Part shown: piece by piece, positions 27,258-56,944 of the stretch
Layout: the number at the start of each line of letters is the position of its first letter
Position numbering within the stretch: position 1 is the first letter of the stretch
Source: a virus
Lineage: Duplodnaviria > Caudoviricetes
Reading direction: 5' to 3' (one strand)
DNA: 60,870 nucleotides
IMG/VR virus record: IMGVR_UViG_3300045119_000559
Span: 1 to 60,870 of that record
Notes under the pieces: model-generated
What the model saw: the letters and a program-made list of their open reading frames with translations, nothing else
Database searches by the model: none
What the model was told of the DNA's origin: nothing
Made by a program: the position numbers and the translations under genes

Positions 27258-28490
27258 TCAGATTGCGTCGGCGACGGCACAGGCCCATTCCGGCCTGACC
27301 CAGAGATATCCGTACAGCACATCGAGTCTCGTGATGAACTGATCCGACATGATATTGTATGCGCTGATCATGCGCATCGAGATGCCATCGAAGGCCTCTC
27401 TCGCCGCCTCATGCACGCCACGCGGCAGCTCCAGGTCCGCCGTCGCCATTGTCACGGCCTCTGGCACAAAGGCGAAGTTCTTGCGATACGACGATGCACT
27501 CAGCGTCGCCGGCACGACATTCGCGGCGTTCGCCGGCGAGGCATCGACCGTCTGGTACTGCACAGGCGTCGGGCCTGCCGCGGGCGGGATGAGCGCGGGA
27601 TAGATGTTCAGCGTGGTGCCGCCATTCGCCAGTGGCGAAGTGACTACGAACTGCATGAGGGTCTGCGTGGAGACCTTCGTGATGCGGTTGACGGAGTTGA
27701 CGCCCGCGAACGTCACAATATCGCCCTGCGCGAGCGGCCCACCAGCGGCGTTGATGGTGATCGCGAGGCCGGTCTGCGTCGCGCCATTCACGGTGAAGGC
27801 AGTGGCCTGCGCGCCTGTGTATGCCCCGGTAGTGTGCTTAATCGTGGTCTGATCCATATACCAGTCGAAGCCGAGCGTATCGCTGGCGATCTGCCCACTC
27901 CGGTACTGGTCGCCGATCTTGCTCTGCGGGTTGAGCAGCCCGGCGAGGCTCGCGACGCTGCGGGCCATGGTCAGCGGATCGAGGATGAGCTTGCGGCGCC
28001 CGCGCGGCGCGGAGTTCAGGTCGAGGATCGCGCCGGCCTGCAGCCAGGTCTGCGCCACTGGGGTCTGTACATTGCCGGCGCCATCGAAGTTGGCGGTGAG
28101 GCGGGCCACGCCGCCCTCGACACCGCCCATGATATTGGCGGCGACCGCGCCGGCAAGGTTGTTGACCATCGGTGCGAGCACCCGGCGCGAGAAGTCGTCC
28201 AGGGACATGGTGCGATCCACGGACGAGTATGATACGTCCACGCCCTGCTGGGTCGAAAGTGACAGCGTGGTGGACTGTTCCGAGGTGTCCTGCACCGAGG
28301 CGGCGGGGCCGGTACGGACTGTGAAATCGTTGGGCAGCCGAATCCGTACCGTGGTGCCGATCTTCGCGCCAGTCTTGGCGAACTGATCGTCGTACTGCTG
28401 GTCGATGTGCTGGATGAACTCGTTGGAGTTCTTCCACAGCCGTACAGCCTCGCGGGTAATCATGTTGATCGTAAGGAGGGTATTCGCCAT
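27258..28490 (-). CDS. major capsid protein, P22 coat (gp5) family
   Basis: MANTLLTINMITREA, GAKIGTTVRIRLP, SLDDFSRRVLAPM, GFDWYMDQ, GDIVTFAGV, RLDVLYGY..VRPEWAC. Confidence 0.92.
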   Translation of the reverse strand: MANTLLTINMITREAVRLWKNSNEFIQHIDQQYDDQFAKTGAKIGTTVRIRLPNDFTVRTGPAASVQDTSEQSTTLSLSTQQGVDVSYSSVDRTMSLDDFSRRVLAPMVNNLAGAVAANIMGGVEGGVARLTANFDGAGNVQTPVAQTWLQAGAILDLNSAPRGRRKLILDPLTMARSVASLAGLLNPQSKIGDQYRSGQIASDTLGFDWYMDQTTIKHTTGAYTGAQATAFTVNGATQTGLAITINAAGGPLAQGDIVTFAGVNSVNRITKVSTQTLMQFVVTSPLANGGTTLNIYPALIPPAAGPTPVQYQTVDASPANAANVVPATLSASSYRKNFAFVPEAVTMATADLELPRGVHEAAREAFDGISMRMISAYNIMSDQFITRLDVLYGYLWVRPEWACAVADAI

Positions 28491-28634: not shown

Positions 28635-29639
28635 TTACGCCCGGCCATTGGCGCGCGCTGCGCGCTCCTTCTCATTCCGTTGCTTGATGAAATCATCCAT
28701 CGAGCAAGTTTCAAGGTCGATGTTCGGTGTGGTGCGGGCACCGACGCGCGGCTTGATCGGCTCCGGTGCAGCGCTCACGCGCCGACCTGCGGTCAGCGCG
28801 GCAGCGGCGCGCAGGACAGGATTGGCTTCGCTGCCTTCACCGGCGAGTTCATCGCCTTCTGGCGCGGTCGTCTTAGGCTTCAGCCCCTCGCTATATCGTG
28901 CCACCGCGATCGCCATTCGCATCGGCGGGAGGGACAGTATCCGGTCGAGTTCATCGGGGTCCTTGCCAAGCCTGTACAGCACTTCCCCTGCATGTTGCGA
29001 GTCGCCAGTCTCCAGCACGGCCTGGACGAAGTCCCCCGGCACGACAGGGCCGGTGAGGGCCTTCAGCCCTGCAATCGACTCGTCATAATCCGCATGGGTC
29101 TTACGCCCGGCGATCACCGCGTCATCGACTCGGCGGTTGAAGAGGTTCTGCTCAGCGAGGCGGCCGGCTTCGCGCTGGAGATCGGCCTCGGTGTAAGTGC
29201 GCTTCGCGGGCGGCGCAGGCGCGGCAGGATCACCCGGCTTCGCCGCACCTTCGGCACCGGGCAACTTTGCGAGTTCCGCCAGGGTCTCCTCGGCGAGCCG
29301 CGCCCTGGCCTCTGCGGCCTCTGCGCGCCTGCGCTCGGCCCACTTCTCGCTCGTGAGCCGCGAGATGCGCCCGGTGGCGGTGTCTGCGGCGGGCCTTGGC
29401 GCTGTCGGCGCGGCGGCGGGCTCATCAGCGGGAGGCTCAGTCCCGCCGCCGCCCTCTGCACCCGCCGCTGCTGCCGGGGGCTTCGCTGCGGGCGAGAGGA
29501 GTTCACTTAAAGGCTTCAGCGGCGCTGCAGGCGCGTCGCTCGGCTGTGGTGTCGGAGTCGGGCCGGGCTCAGGCGTGGGCGTCGGCACTCCGCCGGGGCC
29601 AGCGGCCAGTTCGGGATTTGCGTCGTCTGGAGGTGTCAT
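28635..29639 (-). CDS. scaffolding protein
   Basis: Pro/Ala-rich N-terminus, RISRLT.EK coiled coil, LY.LGKDPDE..RI..LPP, C-terminal SMDDFIKQRN; immediately upstream of the coat gene. Confidence 0.75.
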   Translation of the reverse strand: MTPPDDANPELAAGPGGVPTPTPEPGPTPTPQPSDAPAAPLKPLSELLSPAAKPPAAAAGAEGGGGTEPPADEPAAAPTAPRPAADTATGRISRLTSEKWAERRRAEAAEARARLAEETLAELAKLPGAEGAAKPGDPAAPAPPAKRTYTEADLQREAGRLAEQNLFNRRVDDAVIAGRKTHADYDESIAGLKALTGPVVPGDFVQAVLETGDSQHAGEVLYRLGKDPDELDRILSLPPMRMAIAVARYSEGLKPKTTAPEGDELAGEGSEANPVLRAAAALTAGRRVSAAPEPIKPRVGARTTPNIDLETCSMDDFIKQRNEKERAARANGRA

Positions 29640-30007
29640 GGGGCAGTTGTTCCGCGTTGTCGGCCGCGCGTCAGGGTGGCATCGGCGATTAGGGCATCGT
29701 ACACGCGCTCTTTCAAGGCCTCCGGGGCCGGGGATGCCAACACGGCGGCGAGTGTGGCCCGAGCCGATCCGTCGCGCACGAACACCGGATACAGCAGTTC
29801 GATGAACTCAATCTCCAGCAGCGCGGGCGATAGCTCAGGGCAGAGGGCCTTCATCTGCGCGTAGAGGGCATTATCCCCACCCATGACCTTCGCGTATAGC
29901 TCGTGGGCCATCTCGATCGCAGTGTTGCGCACCAGGGGATGGCAGTGCATATCCCGCCGGGTGTCGCGGCGCGCCAGCGCGCGCTTCATAGCAGACATCT
30001 CACTCAT
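29636..30007 (-). CDS. hypothetical head-module protein
   Basis: HCHPLVRNTA.EMAHELY...ARATLA..L...LKERVYDALI.D; overlaps both neighbours. Confidence 0.65.
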   Translation of the reverse strand: MSEMSAMKRALARRDTRRDMHCHPLVRNTAIEMAHELYAKVMGGDNALYAQMKALCPELSPALLEIEFIELLYPVFVRDGSARATLAAVLASPAPEALKERVYDALIADATLTRGRQRGTTAP

Positions 30008-33775: not shown

Positions 33776-35203
33776 CTAGTGCCCAAGCCAGCGGGTGTTG
33801 GCGCGGGCGGCTTCGCCGGCGTACGGCACGCCGGTGTGGTCCTCGGGCTCGCCAAAGGCCCCCGCAATGGCACCGATGACGCTCGCCATGCCTGGCAATG
33901 CAAGCCGCCGGCGCTGCGAGGGCATCTTGCTCGCTACGCCGAAGTACTCGAAGGCCTTCGATGCATCGGAGTGCTCGTCGTGCAGCGGGTGCTGCGAGAA
34001 TTGCTTCGTCTGCGAGTCGATGTCATAGCGGTAATGCCGCAAGTGGTGTATTCCTTCGGCGCACCGCGCCGCATCGAAGTAGCACTGCGGGAACACCGTG
34101 CGTGCGGCGTTGATGAGGTCCTTCTCACTCACCTTCTGCACAATACGCACGGTCTGCAGCTTCGCCCTGGCCTGCTCCTCGATGGTCATCTTCATGCCGA
34201 GCTGCTTCGCCCTGGCATCGTGCGGGAGCCAGTGGGTGCCGTACAGATAGGATCTGTCCTGCAAGACCTTCAAGTAGTGGTCGATGTGCTTCAGCCGGGA
34301 CTCGTAGAAGTCGATGATACGGTACTCATAGCCGACTTGCTGCACAAACCATATGCTGGTGTGATCGCTGCGGCCAAGGTCCCAATAGGTGTTCACCGGC
34401 ACGGCACGGTCATAGGGGACCTTGCAAATGCGCTCCTGCACCGCAGCCTCACGCAGCTCATCGGCATAGACACTACCTTCGAGGTTGCGCTTGCACTGAC
34501 CTTCCCACACATGCAGGTAGGAGTCATAATTGCGTGCCTTCAGCGCATCCCGTTCCGCCGGGAGTTCTGTTTCGGCGAACCACGGGTTATCCCGCCACGT
34601 CATGAACACTGCGATGCAATTCGGCGGGGGGTTCTTCACGAAGCGCTCGTACGTCGCGTCAGTCTCCAGATCGGGATTGAAGGTGGCAATGATCTCGCTT
34701 CCAGGTTTCCGAACTGTGGGGATCAACACGTCCCAGGAGTTCGCACTCACCGCATTGGCCTCTTCGACCCAACAGTAGTCCACGCCCTCGTAGGACTTGA
34801 TCTTCGTAATGTTGTGCCGGATGCCCTCGAAGCGGAACTCACTGCCGCACGCAGAGCGGATCACCGCCTGCTGCACATCGTAGAGATGCCCGAGGCCGAG
34901 CTTGTCGATCTGCTGAACCAGCAGCTTATGCACCGAGTCCTGAATGGAGTGCTGCAGCTCGCGACCGCAGAGGAATTGCAGCGGGCGCCGGGCGGCCTCG
35001 ATGACGGCCCACCTGGCCACGCCCCACGACCTGCCGGCACCGCGGCCTCCGTACAGTATCTTGTACCGGCTTGCCCGGTGCTTGGGCTGCCCATCTGGGG
35101 CCAGCACCGGCGATCCGTCCTTCAGCGTTTCGTAGAAGGTGTGGAAGATTTTCGAGGGGAACTGCGCGTCGATGCGCGCTGCGGCGGGGGCTGTTGCGTA
35201 CAT
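33776..35203 (-). CDS. terL: terminase large subunit (PBSX/Terminase_3-type)
   Basis: YKILYGGRGAGRS, RELQHSIQDSV, IKSYEG.D.CWVEEA, PTVRKPGSEI..TFNP, DNPWF, WDLG..D.TSIWF.Q, LPHDA. Confidence 0.92.
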   Translation of the reverse strand: MYATAPAAARIDAQFPSKIFHTFYETLKDGSPVLAPDGQPKHRASRYKILYGGRGAGRSWGVARWAVIEAARRPLQFLCGRELQHSIQDSVHKLLVQQIDKLGLGHLYDVQQAVIRSACGSEFRFEGIRHNITKIKSYEGVDYCWVEEANAVSANSWDVLIPTVRKPGSEIIATFNPDLETDATYERFVKNPPPNCIAVFMTWRDNPWFAETELPAERDALKARNYDSYLHVWEGQCKRNLEGSVYADELREAAVQERICKVPYDRAVPVNTYWDLGRSDHTSIWFVQQVGYEYRIIDFYESRLKHIDHYLKVLQDRSYLYGTHWLPHDARAKQLGMKMTIEEQARAKLQTVRIVQKVSEKDLINAARTVFPQCYFDAARCAEGIHHLRHYRYDIDSQTKQFSQHPLHDEHSDASKAFEYFGVASKMPSQRRRLALPGMASVIGAIAGAFGEPEDHTGVPYAGEAARANTRWLGH

Positions 35204-37090: not shown

Positions 37091-38356
37091 CTAGAGGCCC
37101 GTCCAGGCGTTGATGACGCCACTGCCGCCCATCGACAGGATGTAGATGCTGCTGCCAGCGGCGGGGAAGCCCGCGGTGCTGGTGCACTCGATCGGTACGT
37201 TCACCTGCGTGGCGAGGAACGTCTGCAGGGTGCTGGTGCGCAGGGCAGTACAGGCGGTATTGCCGGTGCATGCAGTCGTGGTACATGACCCGAAGCCCGC
37301 CGTGTACGTCATCGTCGGGGTCTTATACATCTGCACAGGGAAGGGCAGAATGCCCTCCGCGAGCGATGTGGTGGAGGTGAAGCCCCCGGCGATCACCGCA
37401 CCGGCACCGGCGCCCTCGGAGAGCTTGTAGAAGTACTTCAGCGCTGCCGCGGCGTCCTTCTCCTTCGGCTGGACCTCGAACAGCGACGCCACGCCGCTGC
37501 GCTCCAGCTGCGCCCCGGTCCAGGCGAAGCCATCCGTGGCTCCGCTGCCGGCAGCCGTCGGGGTGAAGCAAATCTCGACACCGACCTCGGTCGCCGTGGC
37601 GGGAATCGTGACAGTGGTGCTATACCTCGCGAAGGTCGTGGAGACCGAAAGCGAGGTGTTGACCACCGTGGTGATGCCGGTCCAGGCGGGGGTGATGGCC
37701 GGCGAAGCCGTGGGCGTTGCATTGAGGCCTTCATCGGTGCCGGTGCCGCTGATGACGATCATGTTCACTACATTGCCGTTGTCGGCCGAAAGGCCGGCCA
37801 AGGCGGCAATGTATGCGCTGAACGTCACGACCTGCCCAGCGAGCTGGGTGGCATCGGGCGTGGGCACAGCCGACATGACACACACGGGTTGCGTCAGTGC
37901 GCCCGAGGTGCGGAACACCTTCATCACATTGGTGAAGCCCGCAGGCGGCGACGGCGACGAAGTCACGATGGCCGTACGGCCAGCGCCTACAGCGACATTG
38001 GCGATGCAGCCCCACCGATCGGCCGAAAGGCCCGTGGTGGCAATCGCCGCGTTCTGGGCACATGTGACCGTGCCAGTGCCGTTGGTATTGGTGATGTTGA
38101 GCGCGCCGTTGCCGAGGAAGTTCCTCGGGGTGCCCCAGGTGGCACCGATGGCACTCGATGGGATCGTCACGGTCTGCGGGAACGCCCCACCGGGGAGGAG
38201 GGTGTCGGCTGGTACGTTCTCATTGCCCGTGATATACGGGTAGCCGGGAGACGAGCCTGGCGTGGGGTAGCCGGGGAACTGCCCCGCCGCGTACGCGGCC
38301 GTTGCCGCCACCATCGCGAGCGCGCCGAGGGCGCCAAAAACCTTACGCCTGTGCAT
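37091..38356 (-). CDS. exported beta-sandwich (CBM-like) virion-associated protein with RR-containing signal
   Basis: MHRRKVFGALGALAMVAATAAYA|AG; RNFLGNGAL.I, ADRW, LAGQVVTFS, TTFARYS.T..IP, GAQLE...ASLFE, KYFY; RBS GGAG. Confidence 0.7.
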   Translation of the reverse strand: MHRRKVFGALGALAMVAATAAYAAGQFPGYPTPGSSPGYPYITGNENVPADTLLPGGAFPQTVTIPSSAIGATWGTPRNFLGNGALNITNTNGTGTVTCAQNAAIATTGLSADRWGCIANVAVGAGRTAIVTSSPSPPAGFTNVMKVFRTSGALTQPVCVMSAVPTPDATQLAGQVVTFSAYIAALAGLSADNGNVVNMIVISGTGTDEGLNATPTASPAITPAWTGITTVVNTSLSVSTTFARYSTTVTIPATATEVGVEICFTPTAAGSGATDGFAWTGAQLERSGVASLFEVQPKEKDAAAALKYFYKLSEGAGAGAVIAGGFTSTTSLAEGILPFPVQMYKTPTMTYTAGFGSCTTTACTGNTACTALRTSTLQTFLATQVNVPIECTSTAGFPAAGSSIYILSMGGSGVINAWTGL

Positions 38357-38438
38357 CTTGCTTACTCCGTGTGCCCCCGGTGCAAGGGATCAGGTCGGGA
38401 CGAGTGGCCGGGGCCACCAGCACCGACGCTACTCGGTG

Positions 38439-38699
38439 TTACTTCAGCGACTTCACGGCGTCGCGCAAGGACTCGCTACCGGCGTTGGTGCCCTGGCCCT
38501 CGATTTCACTCAGCCGCGGGCGCTCCGCGTGGTATTCCTCGCGCCGGTGGTAGCCAGTACGGTCGCTGCGCGAATGGCAGGACACCCAGCCGTTGTCGAT
38601 CTTCCGCACGTCGATGCTCATGCTCTCGCCCATATCTTCGCGAGAGCCTACGGGGGCTGTGGCGATCACATCGACGCTACTGCGACTGCGCTTTCCCAT
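38439..38699 (-). CDS. hypothetical protein
   Basis: SIDVRKIDNGWV...EEY..ERP; start could also be 38633. Confidence 0.55.
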   Translation of the reverse strand: MGKRSRSSVDVIATAPVGSREDMGESMSIDVRKIDNGWVSCHSRSDRTGYHRREEYHAERPRLSEIEGQGTNAGSESLRDAVKSLK

Positions 38700-38717
38700 A
38701 CCACTTTGCCCTTGCTG

Positions 38718-38897
38718 CTACCGCCCACCCTGCAGGATGAAGCCGAAGTTGTGCCAACCGAGGAGGAACAGAAGTACCCACAGGAACAAGCCCGTCATGT
38801 ACGGACCGCGGACTCCGCCCCAGCCCCACCAGCCGACACCGACGTAGCCGAGGAGCCACAGGAGCATCAATATCCAGAAGAGGAAGCCAATCGGCAT
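38718..38897 (-). CDS. 59-aa Trp/Gly-rich two-TM membrane protein
   Basis: Translated by hand: MPIGFLFWILMLLWLLGYVGVGWWGWGGVRGPYMTGLFLWVLLFLLGWHNFGFILQGGR. Confidence 0.7.
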   Translation of the reverse strand: MPIGFLFWILMLLWLLGYVGVGWWGWGGVRGPYMTGLFLWVLLFLLGWHNFGFILQGGR

Positions 38898-38901
38898 GGC
38901 G

Positions 38902-39120
38902 CTAGCACCCGTGCTCGTTGCGCTTATGCCCGAACAGGCGGCCCTTCATGTCCGGCGTGGGGCCTAGGTGCGTCAGGCCGGCCTTCGCCGAAGGCGGCGA
39001 GGCGATGCGGGTGCTCGGCCCGTGCTTCCCACGGTCCTTGCCACTCATCTCCATGCGATCGTGCGGCTTCGGGAGGGCGTTTTCGCCCCCTTCGGGGCTC
39101 TTGAGGTGCTTGCCGCGCAT
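38902..39120 (-). CDS. small basic/hydrophilic hypothetical protein
   Basis: RBS GGAG before MRGKHLKS; TTGACA upstream at 39195-39200. Confidence 0.55.
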   Translation of the reverse strand: MRGKHLKSPEGGENALPKPHDRMEMSGKDRGKHGPSTRIASPPSAKAGLTHLGPTPDMKGRLFGHKRNEHGC

Positions 39121-39233
39121 ATCAGGGGGCTCCAGCAGTGCGGGATGGGCGCGCGTTGCGCTATGCCGGCATATGATCGCGCCTGCGCGGGCGCTGTCAA
39201 CGCCTACGGCGTCGCAATGGCGTTGGTGTGGCC

Positions 39234-39485
39234 TCAGCAACCACCAGCAGCTATCTCCCCGCCCGGTCCGGGCCTATTTCCGTCGTTTAACGGGATTGGA
39301 AATCGAGGATGTACTGCATTTACAATGCAGGGACCGAAATGGTCCGTATATTCGCGCAATTCAGCGTTGCTCATGTATCCTGCACGCTTCCCGCAGTCTA
39401 CACACTCGCCCCACATGCCTGTTTCATCACTCGCAGGGCGAAACGGGCACATTTGAAGCCAACAGCGGATGAATCTGAACATCAT
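39234..39485 (-). CDS. small Cys-containing hypothetical protein
   Basis: C...C...CVDCGK. Confidence 0.45.
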   Translation of the reverse strand: MMFRFIRCWLQMCPFRPASDETGMWGECVDCGKRAGYMSNAELREYTDHFGPCIVNAVHPRFPIPLNDGNRPGPGGEIAAGGC

Positions 39486-39694
39486 TTCCTCACTGACTGT
39501 CCGAACAGGAACCCCAGCGCGAGGCTCAAGAAGTCGCTAACTGCGTCCAGGGCGTCTTTCTTCGTCACCCCGGCATCGTTCGGCGCGAAGAACAGCACTG
39601 CGGTGAACAAAACGAGTGCCAAGAGGGTCACCAGCGCTGCTGTGTTGCCGGGAAGGTGCGCCGGATCGCCGAAGATGCGGTTGAGCCAGCCCAC
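39482..39694 (-). CDS. small two-TM membrane protein
   Basis: Hydrophobic helices ending LALGFLFG. Confidence 0.6.
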   Translation of the reverse strand: MGWLNRIFGDPAHLPGNTAALVTLLALVLFTAVLFFAPNDAGVTKKDALDAVSDFLSLALGFLFGQSVRK

Positions 39695-39695
39695 T

Positions 39696-40196
39696 CTACG
39701 GTGCCCCTTTGCCGATGTAGTGCCACGTCGGTATTTGCGAGCCCCCGAGCGCCACGCGCAGCGCGGTGCGGAAGTCCCCGTACACGAGCGTTGGGTCGCT
39801 ATCTCGGGTCAAGTGGCGAGTGACGACAATGCCGGCGACGTGGCGGCCGTACGCAGCACCGACGACAGGCATGTACAGCGTGCGCAGCGACTGCCTGGCA
39901 CTCGTGGTGTCGGTGAGTTTGCACTCCAGCACCACCCAGGCATCGACGTTCTCGATGTGCAAGAGCACATCCGCCTGGCAGTACCCGCGACCGTTGGCGT
40001 CGATGTAATCGAACCACTGCCCAATGTGCCATCTGCTCGATGGAAATGCCCCCTTGAGGGCCTTGGCCACCGTGCGCTCGTACCGAATGCCGAGGGCCTT
40101 AACGCCGCGTGGGCGGCCGATAGGGATGCAACGCGGCCGAGGGCACGGTTCGGCGCGCAGGAGGTCCGCAACGCAGCGTTTTGCCTCAGCTGCCAC
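39696..40196 (-). CDS. PD-(D/E)xK nuclease-like protein
   Basis: G.RYE, CQADVLL...VLECKLT, Y.PVV. Confidence 0.6.
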   Translation of the reverse strand: MAAEAKRCVADLLRAEPCPRPRCIPIGRPRGVKALGIRYERTVAKALKGAFPSSRWHIGQWFDYIDANGRGYCQADVLLHIENVDAWVVLECKLTDTTSARQSLRTLYMPVVGAAYGRHVAGIVVTRHLTRDSDPTLVYGDFRTALRVALGGSQIPTWHYIGKGAP

Positions 40197-40875
40197 CGCC
40201 GGAGTCCCATTTATCGCATACGTACTCGGGCGCTATCTTGCCCTTCACCCAGGTGCAGAGCCCCGTGCGGGGCAGGAACATGCCGCACGAAGCGCATGCA
40301 CGGGTATCGCGGCCCTCCTCGCGGTAGCGGACCTCGGCCTGCGTGAACTGCGACTTCGCCCGCACGCGCTCCATGTGGGCGAGCAACTTGCCGCCGTACG
40401 GATACAGCGCCAAGTCCCGTGGTACACGCGTGATGCGCTCGTGCTCGATCGGCGCGTACTCGGGGTGCAGGGCACCTCGATAGGTCTGCCAATCATAGCC
40501 AGCGCTGACTACCGCATATTGCTCCGCCGCTGTGGCGAGATGGTGGCACGGCTCGTACTTGCGATACTCACGCAGGCCTGCTTCGGCCTTTGCCTGCAAC
40601 TGCGCCTCGTGCCAGATGGCCTCCTCGATGGCCTCATGGACTTCGAGGAACTTGTCCAGCGGAATTCCGCTCACCTCCGCGGGGAGGTCCTTGTCCACAT
40701 AGACATACAGCCCATCCTCGCTAATACCGGCGAGATACGGAATGGTGAAGGTGCGCAAGATGCGGCGCTTGCGACCGATCCGTGCGCCGATGGCGGGGTA
40801 CTTCAGCAGCAAGGCGCGCAAGCGCGGCAACGAGCCGGGGGCATCATCATACAGTGAATGATCCCCGCTGGCCAT
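40186..40875 (-). CDS. protein with HExxE/H-rich domain and C-terminal HiPIP-like 4-Cys domain
   Basis: IPYLAG.S, VHEAIE, HHLA; C-terminal AEVRY...CASCGMF....LCTWVKGKIAP..VCDKW. Confidence 0.6.
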   Translation of the reverse strand: MASGDHSLYDDAPGSLPRLRALLLKYPAIGARIGRKRRILRTFTIPYLAGISEDGLYVYVDKDLPAEVSGIPLDKFLEVHEAIEEAIWHEAQLQAKAEAGLREYRKYEPCHHLATAAEQYAVVSAGYDWQTYRGALHPEYAPIEHERITRVPRDLALYPYGGKLLAHMERVRAKSQFTQAEVRYREEGRDTRACASCGMFLPRTGLCTWVKGKIAPEYVCDKWDSGGGS

Positions 40876-40877
40876 GG

Positions 40878-41099
40878 CTACGCCAGCCTGCCGGGGCGCA
40901 ACGTCACAAGTTGATCTGCTGAGGGCGGCGCGTCGCGCCTGAGCGGATCGCGCGCTCGCGCATCCTCGATGTGCGCGTTGTACCATGCGAGCATGGCATC
41001 AGCGTCGCTGAGCACCGTGGCGACCTGCCCATCGTCGTTAATGCGCGTGGCGCAATCGATGCACATCGTCAGCGTGGCGCGGTCGCCTAGGGCGCTCAT
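40878..41099 (-). CDS. hypothetical protein
   Basis: ATGA-coupled ORF. Confidence 0.5.
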   Translation of the reverse strand: MSALGDRATLTMCIDCATRINDDGQVATVLSDADAMLAWYNAHIEDARARDPLRRDAPPSADQLVTLRPGRLA

Positions 41100-41341
41100 C
41101 GGTGCAAGTGCTCCATATCATGCAGGACCTTACGGATATCCGCGGGCTTGATGCCCCTGCAGGAGTTATCCGGCAATAGCTCGTCGATTTCCGCCTGCAG
41201 TTGCTCCTGTGTCACCACCCGCGTAGCGCGCCACTCAGCCATCTGGCGAGTGACAGGGTCATCACACACAGCGCCGCCGATGGTGCCATCGCAGCTGGCG
41301 AGCATTAGTGCTGCGCCGATCGCCGCGCAAAGCGCCCTCAC
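41096..41341 (-). CDS. putative lipoprotein
   Basis: MRALCAAIGAALMLAS|C lipobox. Confidence 0.55.
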   Translation of the reverse strand: MRALCAAIGAALMLASCDGTIGGAVCDDPVTRQMAEWRATRVVTQEQLQAEIDELLPDNSCRGIKPADIRKVLHDMEHLHR

Positions 41342-42075
41342 TGCTCGTCCTCCGTGCTGCTTGCGTCGGGCGACCCGATCAGGCCTAAGGGGCCTGCTGG
41401 CGCCTGCGGCGAGGTGATCTGCGGGAATGCGTGGCCAGAGCCGCCGGTGATGAGGGCCTCGTCTCCATCGAGGGTCAGGGCGAGTTCGGGCGTGCCGGCC
41501 TTCGGGGTGACGCAGGAGATGGTGAGGTGCAGGCCAGGGCCGGTGCCGTTGGTGCTGCCGCGCGCACCGCGCCGCTCTGCCGCAGGCCCGATGAACTCCG
41601 TGACGATCTCCTTCAGCTGCGTGTTGGTGAATTTCTCCGGGGCGTCTTCAAGGCGATCCAGTAACTCCTCCGCTGCGGTCATCCCCACTACTGCCAGCCG
41701 CGAGGCCGCATCACCGAACTTCGCGTCATGGAGGTCCTTATAGTGCGCCACGAGGTCCATGAAGCCCTGGTCGCTCGACTGCAGGCGATAGATGGTCGTG
41801 AGGGCGTGGCCGGTGAGGGCGCTACATTCGGCGGGGGACTTGCCGAGGGCGATAAGGCGGGCGAGCATATGATGCGAGTACCGTAGCCGCGCGAGCTGTG
41901 GGGCGCCGGTGCCGAGGGGGGTAGTGTTGAGGGTGTGAATGTCATCCGGCGTGAGGTCGCGCAGATATGTGAGGTGAACATCGACTTCCCGCGCCTTGCG
42001 CGTGCCGGGGCCGCCGGCGAAAGCCTCCAGCCCGAGCAACGCGATGTCGTCGAGAATCTCGCCGGTGCGGGTCAT
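41338..42075 (-). CDS. HTH protein, candidate terminase small subunit
   Basis: HHMLARLIALGKSPAECSALTGHALTTIYRL..DQGF HTH followed by helical oligomerisation-like region; near the start of the late operon. Confidence 0.5.
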   Translation of the reverse strand: MTRTGEILDDIALLGLEAFAGGPGTRKAREVDVHLTYLRDLTPDDIHTLNTTPLGTGAPQLARLRYSHHMLARLIALGKSPAECSALTGHALTTIYRLQSSDQGFMDLVAHYKDLHDAKFGDAASRLAVVGMTAAEELLDRLEDAPEKFTNTQLKEIVTEFIGPAAERRGARGSTNGTGPGLHLTISCVTPKAGTPELALTLDGDEALITGGSGHAFPQITSPQAPAGPLGLIGSPDASSTEDEQ

Positions 42076-42513
42076 AGCGGCGCAGCGACAGTGGTGAGGT
42101 TAAATGGAAGTACTTCGCGCACGGTGAAAGCCTTTGGCAACCTGATGCAACTGCGTACCGAGTTTGCTCTGCGTCTGCGCGAAGGCTTCGTCGTATTGGT
42201 GGTCGATGTGCTGCAGGGATGCGTTTGAGTCCTTCCACAAGCGCACCGACTCGCGCGTGATTTGCGAAACGCCGAGGAGGTTCCCAGCACCAGTGCTGCC
42301 ATACATCACCGCATCGGCGACCTGCTGCTGCAGCTTGTCGATCATCAGCCCCATGATGCGCGCGGCGCACTCGTCGAGCGTGAGCCAATCGCGCGCTGCG
42401 AGCGCCCTGACGGGCATGATATTCGTCGCCTTGACGATCGCCGGGGCGAAGATGAAGAGCGCGCCGAGGCCAGTGATGAAGCCGCGCCGATGCAGGGCAG
42501 GCGAGTCGATCAT
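42072..42513 (-). CDS. twin-arginine-leader protein built from coat-protein fragments (frameshift near 42147)
   Basis: HRRGFITGLGALF..APAIVKA leader; ITRESVRLWKDSN..QHIDHQYD..FA.T..K.GT matches the MCP N-terminus; the match continues as IRLPKAFTVR in another frame. Confidence 0.7.
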
Positions 42514-42761
42514 TATCTGGTTCCTAAGATTTTCTTGCTATCTGCTTCAGATGCGCGCACCGCGCCGGACTGCAAGGGCTCATATGAGCTGTGATCTCCG
42601 GGTACGTTCTCGTGGTGCTTGAACATGCACTTGCGGCAGAAGTACACATGAGCATAGTACACGTAGTGCGCGCCGCTGCCTGGGCGTAAATGATCGCTAA
42701 TTGCTGCGACAAGACCCTGATACTGGAAGTCGTGGTCTAAGCCTTGGTCTTGGCACTGCAT
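42513..42761 (-). CDS. small Zn-ribbon-like protein
   Basis: C.....HDF...YFCRKC. Confidence 0.55.
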   Translation of the reverse strand: MQCQDQGLDHDFQYQGLVAAISDHLRPGSGAHYVYYAHVYFCRKCMFKHHENVPGDHSSYEPLQSGAVRASEADSKKILGTR

Positions 42762-42765
42762 CGAG

Positions 42766-42999
42766 CTATAGCTCCCTCACGATGTTCACCTGCGTCACGT
42801 AGCACCGGCCCAGGAGGTCCATGCCGGTCGAGACGCTCATGTGGAAGTTGTGCTTCCGGGCCTCCTCGAATATACGGCACACTGGCTCGTATGCCTCTAG
42901 CACGCGCTTGCGCAGATCCGCGGCGAGTTGCACGTCGGTCTGCGTGGCGGGAGCAAGCCGGGTGATGTTGGATGGCTCGGGGGCGGGGATGTCGGTCAT
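42766..42999 (-). CDS. hypothetical protein
   Basis: Downstream of the TTGACG promoter-like site at 43007-43036. Confidence 0.6.
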   Translation of the reverse strand: MTDIPAPEPSNITRLAPATQTDVQLAADLRKRVLEAYEPVCRIFEEARKHNFHMSVSTGMDLLGRCYVTQVNIVREL

Positions 43000-43123
43000 G
43001 GGCGGCGGTGTAGCATGCGCGGCGCGGTGGCGTCAAGGCTGCTGTGGTGGGCCGCGCCGGGGAGGTGCACAACGTGGCCCCAGCGGCGCGGCCCCGGTAA
43101 GGTGACGGCAGACGATGCAGGCG

Positions 43124-43363
43124 CTATGCCGCGAGCCCAGCTTCGCCCGCTTCGCCGCCGAGAGCATCGTAACGCACCGTAGCGGGCTCTGGCAGCCCGC
43201 GAGGGCCGTAGACGAACGCCGTGCCGTTGCGGACGAAAGCCACAGTTCGCACCACGCCCTCGGACGTAACCACGCGCTGGCCGGGGAGGGCGGTTGTGCC
43301 GGGGCGCCCCGTGGTGCGGGATCGCAACAGGACGCTACCATTGGCGCGATGCATTACAGACAT
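43124..43363 (-). CDS. hypothetical protein
   Basis: RBS GGAG; own promoter at 43398-43426. Confidence 0.55.
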   Translation of the reverse strand: MSVMHRANGSVLLRSRTTGRPGTTALPGQRVVTSEGVVRTVAFVRNGTAFVYGPRGLPEPATVRYDALGGEAGEAGLAA

Positions 43364-43397
43364 GGAATTTCTCCAACGATTTCCAACCATTGCCCAC

Positions 43398-43426
43398 ACC
43401 ATACCACGGCCGTAGGCCCGTGTCAA
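43398..43426 (-). promoter_or_regulatory. sigma70-type promoter
   Basis: TTGACA-N17-TATGGT with palindromic spacer. Confidence 0.7.
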
Positions 43427-43608
43427 GCGATACGTTGTGGCGAGCGACGGCGCAGCCGTCCCACAATGTGGGCTCGCAGTCTTAGCGATCGCACAGAGGT
43501 CGCTTCTATGCCACGTAACTGGCGATCCCTTATGGCCAGTACCCCCGGTCGCCTACAGCGACGAGCGCTTGCAGCGCGAGGGGAGGGCGCCGCAACGCCC
43601 TCGTCGCG

Positions 43609-43791
43609 TCAGTCATACATCGCTGCTCGTATCGCCTCGTTCGCTACCGTTGCAGGCCTTGCTCCTTCCTCATACCTGTCTGCGTAGCAGTAGTCAGGCA
43701 GATCATCGTAGCTCATGCCTGTCTTTGCCCGCACCACTGCATCGACCTTGCGCAGCCAGTCGCGAAACTTTGCCTCGTTCCAATCCGACAT
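43609..43791 (-). CDS. hypothetical protein
   Basis: F.DW...VD.......G.S.DDLPD..Y.D.YE.G..P pattern typical of small phage early proteins; RBS AAGGGA. Confidence 0.65.
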   Translation of the reverse strand: MSDWNEAKFRDWLRKVDAVVRAKTGMSYDDLPDYCYADRYEEGARPATVANEAIRAAMYD

Positions 43792-43874
43792 GCTCTTTCC
43801 CTTTTCCCGTTACCGGCGCGGTATCCGCGCGCCCACTGTGTGATATTCCCAGGCCTGTCCGATCCAACTCGCGC

Positions 43875-43903
43875 ACTATAGCACAACGCGCGGCGCGATG
43901 CAA
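43875..43903 (-). promoter_or_regulatory. sigma70-type promoter
   Basis: TTGCAT-N17-TATAGT; near-duplicate of the promoter at 44861-44889. Confidence 0.65.
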
Positions 43904-44117
43904 GCACAATCTTTGTGCACCAGTGCTGCGGCGTTGCCGCGATGCACATGCGGGGTGCATGTGCGCTCGTGGCGGGCGTTGCGCCGACCCTATGTCGCGG
44001 GCCGAATGGGGCGCGCCGGGGCAGCGCGCCCCATGGGTGCGATTTGGCGCAATCGGCCTATACCGATGTCGCGGGCGTCCGTCGCGTGTTAGCACCCCGC
44101 GCGGCGATTGCGTCGCG

Positions 44118-44549
44118 TTGCGCACAATGTCGCGCACTATACCGCGCACATGGATTTGCGTATCCCAGGGGTCTCGTCGGTCCCCGGTGCGTGGGCGCAG
44201 CGCGCCGTCCCACCATCGCCGCGACGAGCGTGGCCCCATGCCTGCGCCGCGCCGCGCGTGCGGTCCAATCTGTGCCCTGCGTACCACACCCCTCGACCCC
44301 TACCCTCAGATTGTGGCTTTTCTGTGTCATTATTTTTATATTACAGACAGACAGCCCTACGGCACACGCGCGGGGGGACGGGGAGGGGCCTGGCATGCCA
44401 AAATCCATGTGCGCAGCACGGTGCGCAGCATTGTGCGCATGCCGCGCGGTGCGCGCCAAATCCCGTGCAATTCCAACCACATACCGCACTGCGCAATAGT
44501 CCTGTTTCGGACCTATTGCGCATGTGCTGCGCACCATACCGCGCACATG
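44118..44549. repeat. iteron-like repeats and inverted repeat around an AT-rich core (candidate origin/terminus)
   Basis: GCGCACtATACCGCGCACATG at 44132-44152 and 44529-44549 (20/21 identical); inverted copy at 44406-44426; AT-rich 44318-44344. Confidence 0.6.
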
Positions 44550-44563
44550 TTTTCGCTCGCCCA

Positions 44564-44821
44564 TCACGGCAACGCAACAGGCTTAATCACCACAATTTGC
44601 GCCTCGACGCCTGCGCGCAGCACATCATACAAATCCCGCGCAACACGCGATCGCATCGACTCCATAGCCCTCGCGATCCGCGCCCCTGGCGCACTGCTAT
44701 CCGACCACGTTGGCGCAACAGCCCGCGCAAAGTCCTTCAGGTCCTGTTGATCGGCGTACTTGGGCGCCCAATCGGGCGCGATCAGGTCCAATGCCTTCAT
44801 AAGTTTCTCGATATCATCCAT
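44564..44821 (-). CDS. hypothetical protein
   Basis: RBS GGAGG; own promoter. Confidence 0.6.
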   Translation of the reverse strand: MDDIEKLMKALDLIAPDWAPKYADQQDLKDFARAVAPTWSDSSAPGARIARAMESMRSRVARDLYDVLRAGVEAQIVVIKPVALP

Positions 44822-44860
44822 GGCGTCAGCCCTCCATATCGTGTTGCATTCAACTCGCGC

Positions 44861-44889
44861 AATGTAGCACATGCGCGGCGCGCACGCAA
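44861..44889 (-). promoter_or_regulatory. sigma70-type promoter
   Basis: TTGCGT-N17-TACATT with GCATGTG in the spacer. Confidence 0.6.
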
Positions 44890-44892
44890 GCA

Positions 44893-45126
44893 CTATTTCT
44901 CACGCCGCACAACACCATCAGCAGAAACGTTCGCCAATGCGACTGCATCCTCGAAGCGTGCATAGTCGAAGCGCCCGTCCCCAAATTCTGTGCATACCAG
45001 GGCGATTTGATCCAACACGGTTTCCTGCACCAGCGCCCGCGCCGCGAATGGCACGCCTTCAATTGCAAGGGACTTATCAATCGCACCGATTGCTTTCGCA
45101 AGGCGAATGAAGTGGTGTTTGTGCAT
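44893..45126 (-). CDS. hypothetical protein
   Basis: MHKHHFIRLAKAI...RFDYARFEDA; RBS GGAGG. Confidence 0.65.
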   Translation of the reverse strand: MHKHHFIRLAKAIGAIDKSLAIEGVPFAARALVQETVLDQIALVCTEFGDGRFDYARFEDAVALANVSADGVVRREK

Positions 45127-45152
45127 GGTGAAGCCTCCAAGTTGATAGCGCG

Positions 45153-45181
45153 ACTATACCACGGTGCTGCGCATGTGTCAA
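45153..45181 (-). promoter_or_regulatory. sigma70-type promoter
   Basis: TTGACA-N17-TATAGT. Confidence 0.75.
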
Positions 45182-45351
45182 GCGCCCCGCAACGTAATGT
45201 ACCAATACCAGTACGCATCATCATGCCACCACAGCGCGATCACCAGCACGCGCCCGCGATACGGCGGCGCGTTGCCGAATGCGCGCACGCGCACATAGTT
45301 GTTCGCCCAGATGGCCGCAATGCGTGCGGCAAGCGTGGTTTTCATGTGCAT
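45178..45351 (-). CDS. small aromatic-rich hypothetical protein
   Basis: RBS GGGAG; own promoter. Confidence 0.5.
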   Translation of the reverse strand: MHMKTTLAARIAAIWANNYVRVRAFGNAPPYRGRVLVIALWWHDDAYWYWYITLRGA

Positions 45352-45378
45352 GACGTGTGCTCCCGATTTGATGTACAC

Positions 45379-45407
45379 ATAGTAGCACATGCAGGCGCAT
45401 GTGTCAA
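45379..45407 (-). promoter_or_regulatory. sigma70-type promoter with palindromic operator-like spacer
   Basis: TTGACA-CATGCGCCTGCATGTGC-TACTAT. Confidence 0.75.
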
Positions 45408-45447
45408 GCGGGCGATGCAAACAATCCGCTCGCATCGCCCCGTCGCA

Positions 45448-45633
45448 TCATTCGGGCAATTTCACCGGCGCGAGCGTAATGGGCGCGCGTTTACGGTTGC
45501 CACGATTGGCGAGCCGTCGCCGCAATGTTTGCGGCCCAAACACGCGCGGCAAATTGCGCACGACAACTCGCGACCACGCATGCACGGGGCCAATTTGATC
45601 CAACCCCGCACGTCGCCGCGTGCGCCGCATCAC
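45448..45633 (-). CDS. small Arg-rich hypothetical protein
   Basis: Start overlaps the upstream stop. Confidence 0.4.
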   Translation of the reverse strand: MMRRTRRRAGLDQIGPVHAWSRVVVRNLPRVFGPQTLRRRLANRGNRKRAPITLAPVKLPE

Positions 45634-45944
45634 AACGGCTCGCACGAATGCCCGATACCATCGGTGCATTCCACAACGCACGACGAGCCGTCAATGAACG
45701 CGACCGTCGCGACGTACAACGTCGCGGGCGCAACATCACCGGCCCGCACCGCATCGGCTTCCCTCATATGCACCACATGCGCCTCGTCACGGTACAATAT
45801 ACCAATAACATCGAACAGGTTTTCCACGTTTGTTCGATGCGTCTTGACATACGCCGCGCACGCCCGTGCAACGCCCGTATGCGACGAGTCTGTATCGCCC
45901 CACAGCACGGACATAACATCCGCGCACAGTTCGGCCATGGTCAT
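45630..45944 (-). CDS. hypothetical protein
   Basis: RBS AAAGGA before MTMAEL. Confidence 0.55.
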   Translation of the reverse strand: MTMAELCADVMSVLWGDTDSSHTGVARACAAYVKTHRTNVENLFDVIGILYRDEAHVVHMREADAVRAGDVAPATLYVATVAFIDGSSCVVECTDGIGHSCEPL

Positions 45945-46021
45945 CTTGGATGGTCCTTTCATCGGGCACGCTCGCGCGGTCCCATTACGCATGGTGGCAT
46001 TGTTGCCCACATGACGCGCGT

Positions 46022-46050
46022 AGGATAGCACAACGCCGCGCATGTGTCAA
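46022..46050 (-). promoter_or_regulatory. sigma70-type promoter (leftward member of divergent pair)
   Basis: TTGACA-N17-TATCCT. Confidence 0.7.
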
Positions 46051-46107
46051 CCCACATTATCGCCCCACGATATCACAATTTCGTGATCGACTTTCCGCAC
46101 AATGCCA

Positions 46108-46136
46108 TTGCAATCCAAGCTGGTCCGTGCTATACA
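46108..46136 (+). promoter_or_regulatory. sigma70-type promoter (rightward member of divergent pair)
   Basis: TTGCAA-N17-TATACA. Confidence 0.55.
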
Positions 46137-46193
46137 TCACGGTGTCGGGCGCAGCCAATGCGCCGCACCATCAACCCAAAAGGACGCCACACC

Positions 46194-46742
46194 ATGGACC
46201 CCAATACCAACCCCGAACCGACTGCGACCAGTACACTGTCGTATGGTCGCTGGAGCACAGATGCCAATCACCTTCCGCCGAAGGCTGTTGCGTACCTGTT
46301 GGCGAACGGCTTCACACAGAGCATGACCGATGCGGCTGCGTTCACCAAGGAGCAGAAGGCCAACGCACACGAGGCGTTCGCGAAGGCCCACGGCGTCGAG
46401 GTGGCGTCGCTCAGCGAGGCCGACAAGGAGTCCGCCGTCGCGGCCCTCGCGGACGAAAAGCGCGAAGCCCGGTTTCAGGCCATCCTGAAGGGCGAAGTCG
46501 GCACCCGCGTAGGCGGACCGCGCCTGCCGCAAATCGACCGCGTGATGCGCGAAGTGGCGGAAGAGACGGTGCGAGCGATTGCGACTGCGCGCAACGTCGC
46601 GATGCCCAAGGGCGATGTCCTGAAGGCCGCGATTGAGAAGGTCCTGGCGCGCAATCCCGACGAAATCCGGGCGAAGGCCCAGGAGCGCATCGACAGCGCC
46701 AAGGCCCTCGCGGAAGGCGCGGACGACTTGTTCGCGGCTTAG
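46194..46742 (+). CDS. early helical protein
   Basis: RBS AAAGGA; strongly biased codons; C-terminal half resembles 54421-54942. Confidence 0.75.
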   Translation: MDPNTNPEPTATSTLSYGRWSTDANHLPPKAVAYLLANGFTQSMTDAAAFTKEQKANAHEAFAKAHGVEVASLSEADKESAVAALADEKREARFQAILKGEVGTRVGGPRLPQIDRVMREVAEETVRAIATARNVAMPKGDVLKAAIEKVLARNPDEIRAKAQERIDSAKALAEGADDLFAA

Positions 46743-56233: not shown

Positions 56234-56445
56234 TGGGTGCATTCAGCCTCACGCATTGGCTCCTCGTCGCCGGGGCGGTGATGTTGCTGTTCGGCGGCGG
56301 CAGGATATTCACCCGGACAATGGGCGACCTCGGGCAGGGGCTACGCCAGTTCAAGTCCGGCATGACGGAGGCGCTGGGGCCTACGGCCCCACCCACAGCG
56401 AAGTTGCCTCCGAAGGAGGACGAAGATGACGACCTCGATGCATAG
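56233..56445 (+). CDS. tatA: twin-arginine translocase TatA/E subunit
   Basis: MGAFSLTHWLLVAGAVMLLFGGGRI....MGDLGQGLRQFKSGM: TM with His at the polar position, FG hinge, amphipathic helix ending FK, acidic tail. Confidence 0.88.
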   Translation: MGAFSLTHWLLVAGAVMLLFGGGRIFTRTMGDLGQGLRQFKSGMTEALGPTAPPTAKLPPKEDEDDDLDA

Positions 56446-56944
56446 CACCCTGCTGCGTCCGAGCCGCCGTGGCATCATCGGTGCCCTGGGCGCCCTGTTC
56501 GCCGCCCCTGCCATCGTACGAGCCGCGTCCTTGGACGCCCTGCGCGGCGTGCCGTACGGCCTCGGTGCCGATGGCACCCTCGCGCCCATCACGCAGGGCT
56601 ACGCGACGGAGTCGCTCGACTACGAGTATTGGGTCTCCATGGGCGGCACCATCGTGCGTCGCAGTGCTCGCGACATCCTCGCCGCGCCTGCGGGCACGTA
56701 CCAACCTTGGCTTGGCATCAATGATACGCATATTGGTTCCAGCATAGCCTTCCGCCCTACCGACGGACAAAAGAAGGGTCTGTCATTCGCGTATGACAAG
56801 ACTACGCGCAGCTTGCAGATCATTAACTTCGACGACCCCCTTGCGCGCGATCCGGTCATTCTGCGGCTTCGCCAAGAGCAGGACGACTTACGCCAGCGCC
56901 TACAGCGGGCACAACTCGCGACGGGAGATGTACTTTATGGCTGA
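56426..56944 (+). CDS. twin-arginine-leader protein
   Basis: SRRGIIGALGALFAAPAIVRA|AS; overlaps the tatA 3' end. Confidence 0.7.
   Translation: MTTSMHSTLLRPSRRGIIGALGALFAAPAIVRAASLDALRGVPYGLGADGTLAPITQGYATESLDYEYWVSMGGTIVRRSARDILAAPAGTYQPWLGINDTHIGSSIAFRPTDGQKKGLSFAYDKTTRSLQIINFDDPLARDPVILRLRQEQDDLRQRLQRAQLATGDVLYG

Follow-up and report, generated by a model that had tools for sequence, protein, structure and literature searches.

What would a phage gain from a small gene whose product carries pieces of the phage's own coat protein behind an export-type leader? The question is raised by an open reading frame (ORF) of IMG/VR record IMGVR_UViG_3300045119_000559, the whole of which was analysed here and is called the window (60,870 bp, linear, complete-looking, CheckV 100%); it belongs to an uncultured phage of the Caudoviricetes from a soil metagenome, known from one sequencing run. 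The ORF (P0002; 42100..42513, minus strand) starts with ATG, ends in a stop codon at 42100-42102 and encodes 137 amino acids. Its product is a two-module protein, in which an export-type leader (residues 1-35) is followed by copies of coat-protein helices (residues 42-123). A preliminary description had placed it at 42072-42513; the gene itself stands, while the left end does not, since the 28 extra bases are a spacer and the start of the gene 41338-42075. Here we demonstrate the architecture of this protein, its mimicry of the coat, its recurrence in other phages and its conservation, and then consider what it could be for.

Coat-like segments of the small protein

The model for both copied segments is the window's major coat protein, a P22-type protein of 410 amino acids (27258..28490, minus strand; Pfam P22_CoatProtein, E 3.4e-36; phrog_283, E 2.9e-61), whose gene holds the N-arm at 28344-28487 and the long-helix region at 28023-28208. 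Residues 76-123 of the small protein (42145..42288, minus strand) match coat residues 2-49 with 27 of 48 positions identical (tblastn, E 1e-15; hidden Markov model (HMM), i-E 5e-17), and the 26 of 42 identities claimed in the preliminary description fall exactly on residues 79-120 against coat 5-46. The segment before it, residues 42-79 (42277..42390, minus strand), corresponds to the long P-domain ('spine') helix (coat HMM positions 92-129). Its resemblance to the coat, also pointed out earlier, amounts to 9 of 29 identical residues between ORF residues 44-72 and coat 95-123 (pairwise tblastn, E 0.048), and a coat HMM built from 10 P22-type coat proteins gives it 12.0 bits over positions 94-129, a score reached by 0 of 3000 shuffles (maximum 6.1). 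This long-helix match is weak but real, and the piece is clearer in relatives (LTLDDYAERILAP). Together, about 80 of the 410 coat residues are represented, from HMM positions 1-48 and 92-129 only, and their order is the reverse of that in the coat protein, as first noticed; the ORF has no match to Pfam P22_CoatProtein (PF11651), and the rest of the HK97 fold is lacking.

Between the N-arm copy and the coat gene the nucleotide identity is 61%, the proportion of synonymous differences (pS) is 0.73, which is saturated, and the nonsynonymous divergence (dN) is 0.37; different codons at conserved residues, another early remark, are used for 14 of the 27 identical residues. Because synonymous change is saturated while dN is 0.37, we take the copy to be old and constrained. 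A similarity of copy and coat gene at the RNA level was rejected on the same 61% identity and on the shared strand, and an origin of the stretch YGSTGAG from the Walker A motif of the terminase was dropped, the similarity to TerL having E 1.9 and the stretch aligning better where the coat long helix ends. Structure prediction by AlphaFold2 with a 150-sequence alignment (mean predicted local distance difference test (pLDDT) 74.8) gave helices at residues 11-19, 46-72, 82-112 and 118-130, of which 46-72 and 82-112 have block-mean pLDDT values of 81-96 over most of their length; no compact fold was predicted for the 137-residue protein (predicted template modelling score 0.31). The predicted complex of the coat (alignment A6) with ORF residues 36-137 (alignment A5) scored 0.00, which counts neither way.

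Leader module and its export-type features

The RR leader described earlier is present in the small ORF. It occupies residues 1-35 (42409..42513, minus strand; leader HMM, E 1.3e-15) and is of the twin-arginine type, MIDSPALHRRGFITGLGALFIFAPAIVKA followed by TNIMPV, with the motif H-RR-G-F-I-T and V-K-A at a possible signal-peptidase site, where cleavage would fall after VKA. The general leader pattern is S-RR-G-F-L...AAPAIVRA-S-LMPV. A degenerate DNA pattern for the leader end, APAIV[RK]...MPV, run on viral contigs, was found in at least 119 stretches with very diverse cargos; among the matches listed, RR stands just upstream in 123 of 124 matched ORFs, and a P22-type coat piece occurs in only 12 of 123 leader ORFs. 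The leader is thus a separate, mobile module, which recurs almost letter for letter at the head of hundreds of small proteins from uncultured phages.

Leader statistics were obtained from the 248 of 267 unique sequences that fitted the pattern. The residue before RR is S in 123 and T in 26 (149 of 248), RR+1 is G or S in 211, RR+2 is F in 165 or L in 58 (223), and RR+3 is L in 143 or I in 78 (221); the hydrophobic stretch has a median of 15 amino acids and a mean Kyte-Doolittle value of 2.18. R or K directly follows PAIV in 223 leaders, and after this basic residue come A/V, x, S, L/I, M (242), P (208) and V (197). These features are consistent with the S/T-RR-x-F-L consensus of twin-arginine translocation (Tat) signals and with a basic c-region. 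Moreover, language-model neighbours carry Tat signals, which is a lead only. Run on 301 bacterial genomes, all from a single class, the leader HMM gave just two partial matches, each to the N-terminal signal of a periplasmic solute-binding protein (DctP in one case, Peripla_BP_6 in the other). No match of leader region 1-40 to longer proteins (241-2000 amino acids) was found at E<=0.01, which is weak evidence.

The window encodes a second leader protein, P0001, of 172 amino acids (56426..56944, plus strand; leader HMM, E 6.5e-7), which lies within the replication/recombination module. Its leader reads SRRGIIGALGALFAAPAIVRA, and its cargo matches nothing in the window. The linker motif Y-D-K-x-x-R-S-L is common to P0001 and 10 of the 150 best family members, all long ones.

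A family of relatives in uncultured phages

A word-based search returned two close relatives only. When a profile of three sequences was searched against 1.84 billion representatives, 1789 matches were obtained at E<=1e-3 and 166 clusters at E<=1e-10. The statements that follow concern the best 150 of the profile matches, which all have 62-275 amino acids. RR is present in every one of them and AP[AV][IVL][IV] in 134. At least one coat-like piece, mostly from coat HMM positions 2-60, occurs in 149, and two or more occur in 32; in 24 of these 32 the pieces do not follow the sequence of the coat, since the N-arm piece comes only after the long-helix piece (86-130) or after the coat C-terminus (about 360-400, RLDVLYG..RPEW). 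A C-terminal hydrophobic stretch followed by PVTRRFW is found in 53, while the C-terminus of the window protein, ...HQVAKGFHRARSTSI, has no hydrophobic tail. Furthermore, I-T-R-E and N97 are nearly invariant across relatives, and the Arg in the LTLD..R piece is kept. Portal pieces also occur: P0138 matches the window portal at residues 318-391 (E 1e-8), and P0058, P0083 and P0151 match the portal N-terminus. P0035 has a weak match to the Pfam P22_portal model (E 0.053). In many members, for example P0008, P0010, P0011 and those of loci L053, L106 and L134, the motif F/Y-x-x-G-x-Q-W comes after the N-arm copy or is present on its own, and it is also seen near the N-terminus of the P22-type portal of genome G008 (9396-11732 of L174).

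The family is large and so far undescribed, in that no family model, cultured phage or paper was found that describes a leader with a fragment of the phage's own virion. None of the Pfam, NCBIfam, PHROG and PADLOC models matches it (a chance-level E of 0.08 in NCBIfam only), a cluster look-up of 10 members gave only metagenomic entries that were called 'hypothetical protein' or had no name, and the family profile found nothing in the PDB below E 0.04. In cultured phages the sole match of the ORF was the coat N-terminus of Pseudomonas phage PAE2, and a typical leader protein, that of L122, found nothing meaningful there (E 0.7). A scan of genome contigs with the N-arm pattern returned coat genes only (8 loci), and a literature search, with supplementary files outside it, gave no account of an export leader fused to capsid fragments.

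Two loci may be mentioned beside the family. A leaderless frame of 157 amino acids at 6118-6588 of L175 (26118-26588 of G008, minus strand), charged and probably helical at its start, ends in an N-arm-like piece and the coat-like piece 'LRIKFPKDFKV', and is matched by 12 of the 150 family members (blastp). The coat N-terminus of L008, an IMG/VR contig of 36.8 kb, is almost identical to that of the window coat, which makes a close relationship between L008 and the window phage probable.

Cargo and the phage's own virion proteins

Cargos were compared with the other ORFs of the same locus, the 99th percentile of the control being 23.9 bits. In the partial loci, 12 of 118 cargos match a same-locus ORF above 28 bits, among the matches listed. 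The target is a P22-type coat in L055/L145, L092, L126 and L074 (by phrog_283 in L074, by the coat HMM in the others), a coat of phrog_9953 in L137, and the N-terminus of a Phage_capsid_3 coat in L108, with 77% identity over 31 amino acids; in L048 it is a GP7-type coat (phrog_212), two different parts of which are copied by two leader genes. The targets in L100/L142 and L117 have no assigned identity, that of L117 being without a PHROG or Pfam family. Whole records were taken as the first 15 loci by number on contigs of 35-70 kb, unselected, together with G000 and G001, which makes 17 genomes with 19 leader proteins. Of the 19 cargos here, 7 have a counterpart in their own genome at E<1e-5, which in every case is a major head protein (phrog_283, phrog_9953 or phrog_212, the last equivalent to Pfam GP7). 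Three further self-matches are marginal, namely to the coat long helix in G007 (E 4e-3), to the C-terminal part of the coat in G013 (E 1.2e-2) and to the N-terminus of a tail-fibre-like protein in G006 (E 8e-3). Across all loci, four head-protein families are copied.

The own genome ranks first of the 17 in 5 of the 7 strong cases. Among 304 comparisons of a cargo with another genome, all 13 scores of at least 30 bits lie on head-protein regions, 11 of them in annotated coat ORFs of the same type and 2 at an unannotated site of G016; the copy therefore follows the coat family and subtype. Within one coat type, the tracking of the own coat is weak: the N-arm copy of the window protein shares 56% identity with the window coat and 63% with that of L001. 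The check proposed at the outset, whether each fragment tracks its cognate coat, thus came out positive for coat family and subtype, and only weakly so within a type. Since the same leader stands on pieces of whichever head protein the phage uses, this is a mobile 'leader + own-virion-fragment' cassette kept by selection, and the repeated fusion of the leader to self virion copies of four head-protein families implies strong, repeated selection. In L014, three adjacent ORFs at 9615-11052 (about 29.9-31.3 kb of G001) each carry a different coat-like piece, covering HMM positions 358-384, a leader with 3-85, and 226-325, with an intact coat gene 16 kb downstream.

Gene position and surroundings

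The position of the leader gene varies like that of a moron. In G000, G001, G007, G009 and G013 it has the strand of the coat gene and stands upstream of it at a distance of 12-24 kb, which in G000, G001 and G009 is 14-24 kb. Genes for TerL, portal or coat are frequent downstream neighbours and a primase gene frequently precedes it, and neighbour clustering found no gene that always accompanies it. Some loci have several copies. L048 has two leader genes, and L134 has three in a row, which carry the N-arm, the C-terminus with the long helix, and a weak C-terminal match.

In the window, the gene 42100-42513 shares its strand with the coat gene, which begins about 14 kb further downstream, and is surrounded by small genes whose products are without PHROG, Pfam or PADLOC family. 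Its third-codon-position GC content is 0.80, as in the neighbouring genes, its ATG overlaps the stop of an upstream ORF of 82 amino acids (TAATG), and AGGA, read from the sequence as resembling a ribosome-binding site, stands 8 nt before the ATG (42522..42525, minus strand). The nearest upstream promoter-like site, TTGACA-17-TATGGT at 43398..43426 (minus strand), about 900 nt away, is a consensus match only. This promoter-like element occurs in four copies (family D1) at 43401-43426, 45156-45181, 45382-45407 and 46025-46050 on the minus strand, with the pattern TTGACACATGCGC...N...TAT..T and a perfect TTGACA with a 17-nt spacer at 43426, 45181, 45407 and 46050. The stretch between the copies (43398-46050) has many short direct and inverted repeats built on CGCGCACATG, and 7 promoter-like sites were observed in 38000-46500, where 2.2 were expected. 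Two genes downstream, an ORF of 81 amino acids (41096-41341, minus strand) begins with MRALCAAIGAALMLASC, which by eye resembles a lipoprotein signal with a lipobox; it has no family match.

The head module is on the minus strand, and the replication and recombination genes are on the plus strand from 46 kb. Annotation places TerL at 33776-35203 and the portal at 31430-33772, both on the minus strand; a protein of 475 amino acids is encoded at 30000-31427. A scaffolding protein of 334 amino acids (28635..29639, minus strand; phrog_8865, E 3.9e-12) is, from the P22 literature, a candidate partner of the copied coat elements. In a PDB sequence search the coat was matched by its C-terminal part only, to the 'putative coat protein' entries 8skg and 6mnt.

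Possible functions of the leader proteins

The export-type leader points to the periplasmic side of the membrane as the probable destination, and none of the three roles suggested in the preliminary description, a decoy for defence systems, a membrane tether or an inhibitor of competing assembly, fitted simply. From the leader features and the RR-hydrophobic...hydrophobic-RR layout of the long forms we infer export and a periplasmic topology, with the cargo outside the cytoplasm. The leader would take the protein to the Tat translocase, and the coat-like helices would end on the periplasmic face of the inner membrane, either free after cleavage or, in the long relatives (53 of 150), tethered by an anchor at the C-terminus whose last residues are RRFW. 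In that place the cargo would, by mimicry, capture a protein whose usual docking sites are those virion surfaces, and its most likely use would be to block genome delivery of incoming phages of the same head type (superinfection exclusion). The docking partner and the exclusion of kin phages are conjecture. A periplasm-exposed mimic that excludes kin phages is the reading that we favour, tentatively, as possible without yet being probable. In a further proposal, a general and mobile 'bait-and-export' cassette, a fixed Tat leader would be joined to copies of the best-conserved segments of the head, portal or tail proteins of its phage. The copy would bind whatever recognises the segment, either structural proteins made by a related, competing phage or an immune sensor of the host, and the leader would pull the complex up to the inner membrane or across it, so clearing the partner from the cytoplasm. 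This is unlikely, though a serious candidate.

Several observations weigh against the mimic that excludes kin phages. To our knowledge coat and scaffold act in the cytoplasm, and we know of no periplasmic binder of coat N-arms. The curated Tat HMMs stay below cut-off in relatives (TIGR01409, 15.5 against 16.7 bits; PF10518, 15.1 against 22.7 bits), and the window protein itself matches neither TIGR01409 nor PF10518. The residue at position -1 is A in only 147 of 248 leaders and V, I, Y or F in 87, so cleavage after V-[RK]-A would not be general; another candidate site, [AV]-x-S, placed two residues further on, agrees with 179 of the sequences. In addition, the leader and SLMPV vary far less than signal peptides usually do, which hints at a possible specific extra role. 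No self-match was found for 9 of the 19 leader proteins of the whole records, including P0001. The cargos at 9512-10105 of L035 and 7492-7818 of L036 are the Pfam Phage Tail Collar domain (E about 2e-13), so the leader also carries tail-fibre parts, and some cargos copy the outward-facing insertion-domain region of the coat (HMM 226-325); because insertion-domain and tail-collar cargos occur, one common partner is unlikely. In G008 the leader gene lies between the scaffold-like and coat genes, inside the head-assembly operon, which suits an assembly role. Finally, the leader HMM gave 0 matches in 5 bacterial genomes with a P22-type coat, and since no prophage gene of this family turned up in these or in the 301 genomes, exclusion expressed from a prophage is unsupported there.

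The protein could act on the cytoplasmic side instead, as a head-assembly factor. Its N-arm and long-helix copies would rebuild the docking site of the scaffold's C-terminal hook, the leader would hold the bound scaffold or coat at the membrane or at the Tat receptor, and procapsid assembly would be nucleated, timed or limited, or a partner would be 'hitch-hiking'. The window protein holds exactly both elements that, in the available text of PMC9965877 and PMC12005531, are bound by the P22 scaffold hook; since that hook binds the N-arm and long-helix R101, the window protein could be a scaffold-binding site on a membrane-directed leader. The near-invariance of I-T-R-E and N97, the kept Arg of the LTLD..R piece, the recurrence of TerL, portal and coat genes as downstream neighbours and the place of the G008 gene agree with this, as do the portal pieces, given that the P22 scaffold is described to bind the portal wing (available text of PMC12005531), and the statement in the consulted part of PMC10924467 that Tat can export signal-less partner proteins. 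An export leader, however, would remove the mimic from the cytoplasm, and the two hydrophobic ends of the long forms, with RR on the outer side of each, would leave the cargo on the periplasmic side. The insertion-domain and tail-collar cargos do not correspond to scaffold sites, and the equivalence to P22 D14 and R101 is one of position only, without alignment to P22 gp5. On balance we consider an assembly factor improbable, if far from negligible. Coat proteins and peptides are also sensed by the defence systems CapRel, Lit/Gol and PifA, and a decoy or bait for host immune sensors of conserved head segments would bind the sensor untriggered, the leader then sequestering or expelling the complex. 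The copied pieces are the best-conserved stretches of the coat and portal proteins and correspond to blocks conserved in the coat alignment. Their order is shuffled and their content differs greatly between phages, a pattern that an arms race would produce, and the window gene belongs to an operon of small genes that is preceded by repeated promoter-like elements and is separate from the late genes. But there is no PADLOC model match, no defence gene nearby and no known partner, the known sensors are cytoplasmic, and a faithful copy could trigger the sensor instead of blocking it, which makes such a decoy distinctly unlikely.

A packaged internal protein, whose coat-like module targets it to the procapsid and whose leader acts in the membrane of the next host at genome delivery, would explain the adaptor logic of a conserved leader with a variable part matching the own head protein, as well as the sets of genes covering different coat parts (three in L134, two in L048). 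The canonical S-RR-x-F-L motif and the basic c-region would be superfluous for such a role, and tail-collar cargos do not fit it, so we give it very little probability. The reading as a functionless remnant, left by a partial coat-gene duplication behind a signal-like sequence, could appeal to the two close homologues of the word-based search and to the C-terminal 14 residues, which match nothing; it is refuted in practice, with virtually no probability left, by the 166 clusters at E<=1e-10 that share the architecture, the nearly invariant key residues, the third-position GC of 0.80, the dN of 0.37 against saturated synonymous change, and the same design on four unrelated coat families. As had been suggested from the start, the evidence supports a capsid mimic under selection and not a recent or decaying duplicate, the architecture being found in at least 150 clusters and the cargo following the phage's own head-protein type.

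Whatever the function, the pattern would mean that selection favours bringing 'self' capsid surfaces to a site which capsids themselves never reach. The partner, whether ejection or assembly proteins of kin phages, the own scaffold or a host sensor, would reveal an interaction new to phage biology. Furthermore, a leader with a self-match is a simple sequence rule for finding such genes in metagenomes, the copied pieces mark short coat segments that are functionally 'visible' to other proteins, and one class of small phage genes listed as 'hypothetical' turns out to follow a logic that can be read.

Comparison with known systems

In the P22 system, the available text of Xiao et al. 2023 (PMC9965877) and of PMC12005531 describes a C-terminal hook of the scaffold that binds D14, E15 and E18 of the coat N-arm and R101 of the long helix. 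The two helices of the window protein are homologous to the N-arm and long-helix regions of the P22-family coat; compared with gp5, however, only about 80 of 410 coat residues are kept, in reverse order and without the rest of the HK97 fold. The leader resembles Tat signals in S/T-RR-x-F-L, in a short Ala/Gly-rich hydrophobic stretch and in a basic residue before its end, and bacterial periplasmic binding proteins carry near-identical signals. It differs from them in being phage-borne, in that the leader and S-L-M-P-V are kept across very different cargos, and in that the cargo is made of short virion-protein copies and is not an enzyme or cofactor protein. The long relatives add a C-terminal hydrophobic helix and then RR, and so recall the Tat-dependent tail-anchored proteins, for which the consulted part of Gallego-Parrilla et al. 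2024 (PMC10924467) gives a layout of N-terminal signal and C-terminal tail.

The exclusion proteins of the SieA type are similar in another way. SieA of P22, according to the available text of Leavitt et al. 2024 (PMC10883804), is a small inner-membrane protein that blocks injection by kin phages, and this type shares with the leader proteins a small size, a phage origin and a moron-like gene placement, together with the inner-membrane place and own-kind targets that are proposed for the latter. The leader protein differs in having no similarity to any PHROG family, and exclusion by the leader family is conjectural. We know of no copying of virion proteins by SieA, whose exclusion of kin phages takes another route; another membrane protein of superinfection exclusion is gp15 of HK97. 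Satellites also use mimics, namely CpmB of SaPI, a mimic of the scaffold C-terminus, Ccm of SaPIbov5, a coat homologue, and Sid of P4. Like the leader proteins, these are small accessory proteins that mimic head-assembly contacts, but CpmB, Ccm and Sid are cytoplasmic, have no export leader, are borne by satellites and target the helper, whereas the window gene sits in a phage that owns the coat gene itself.

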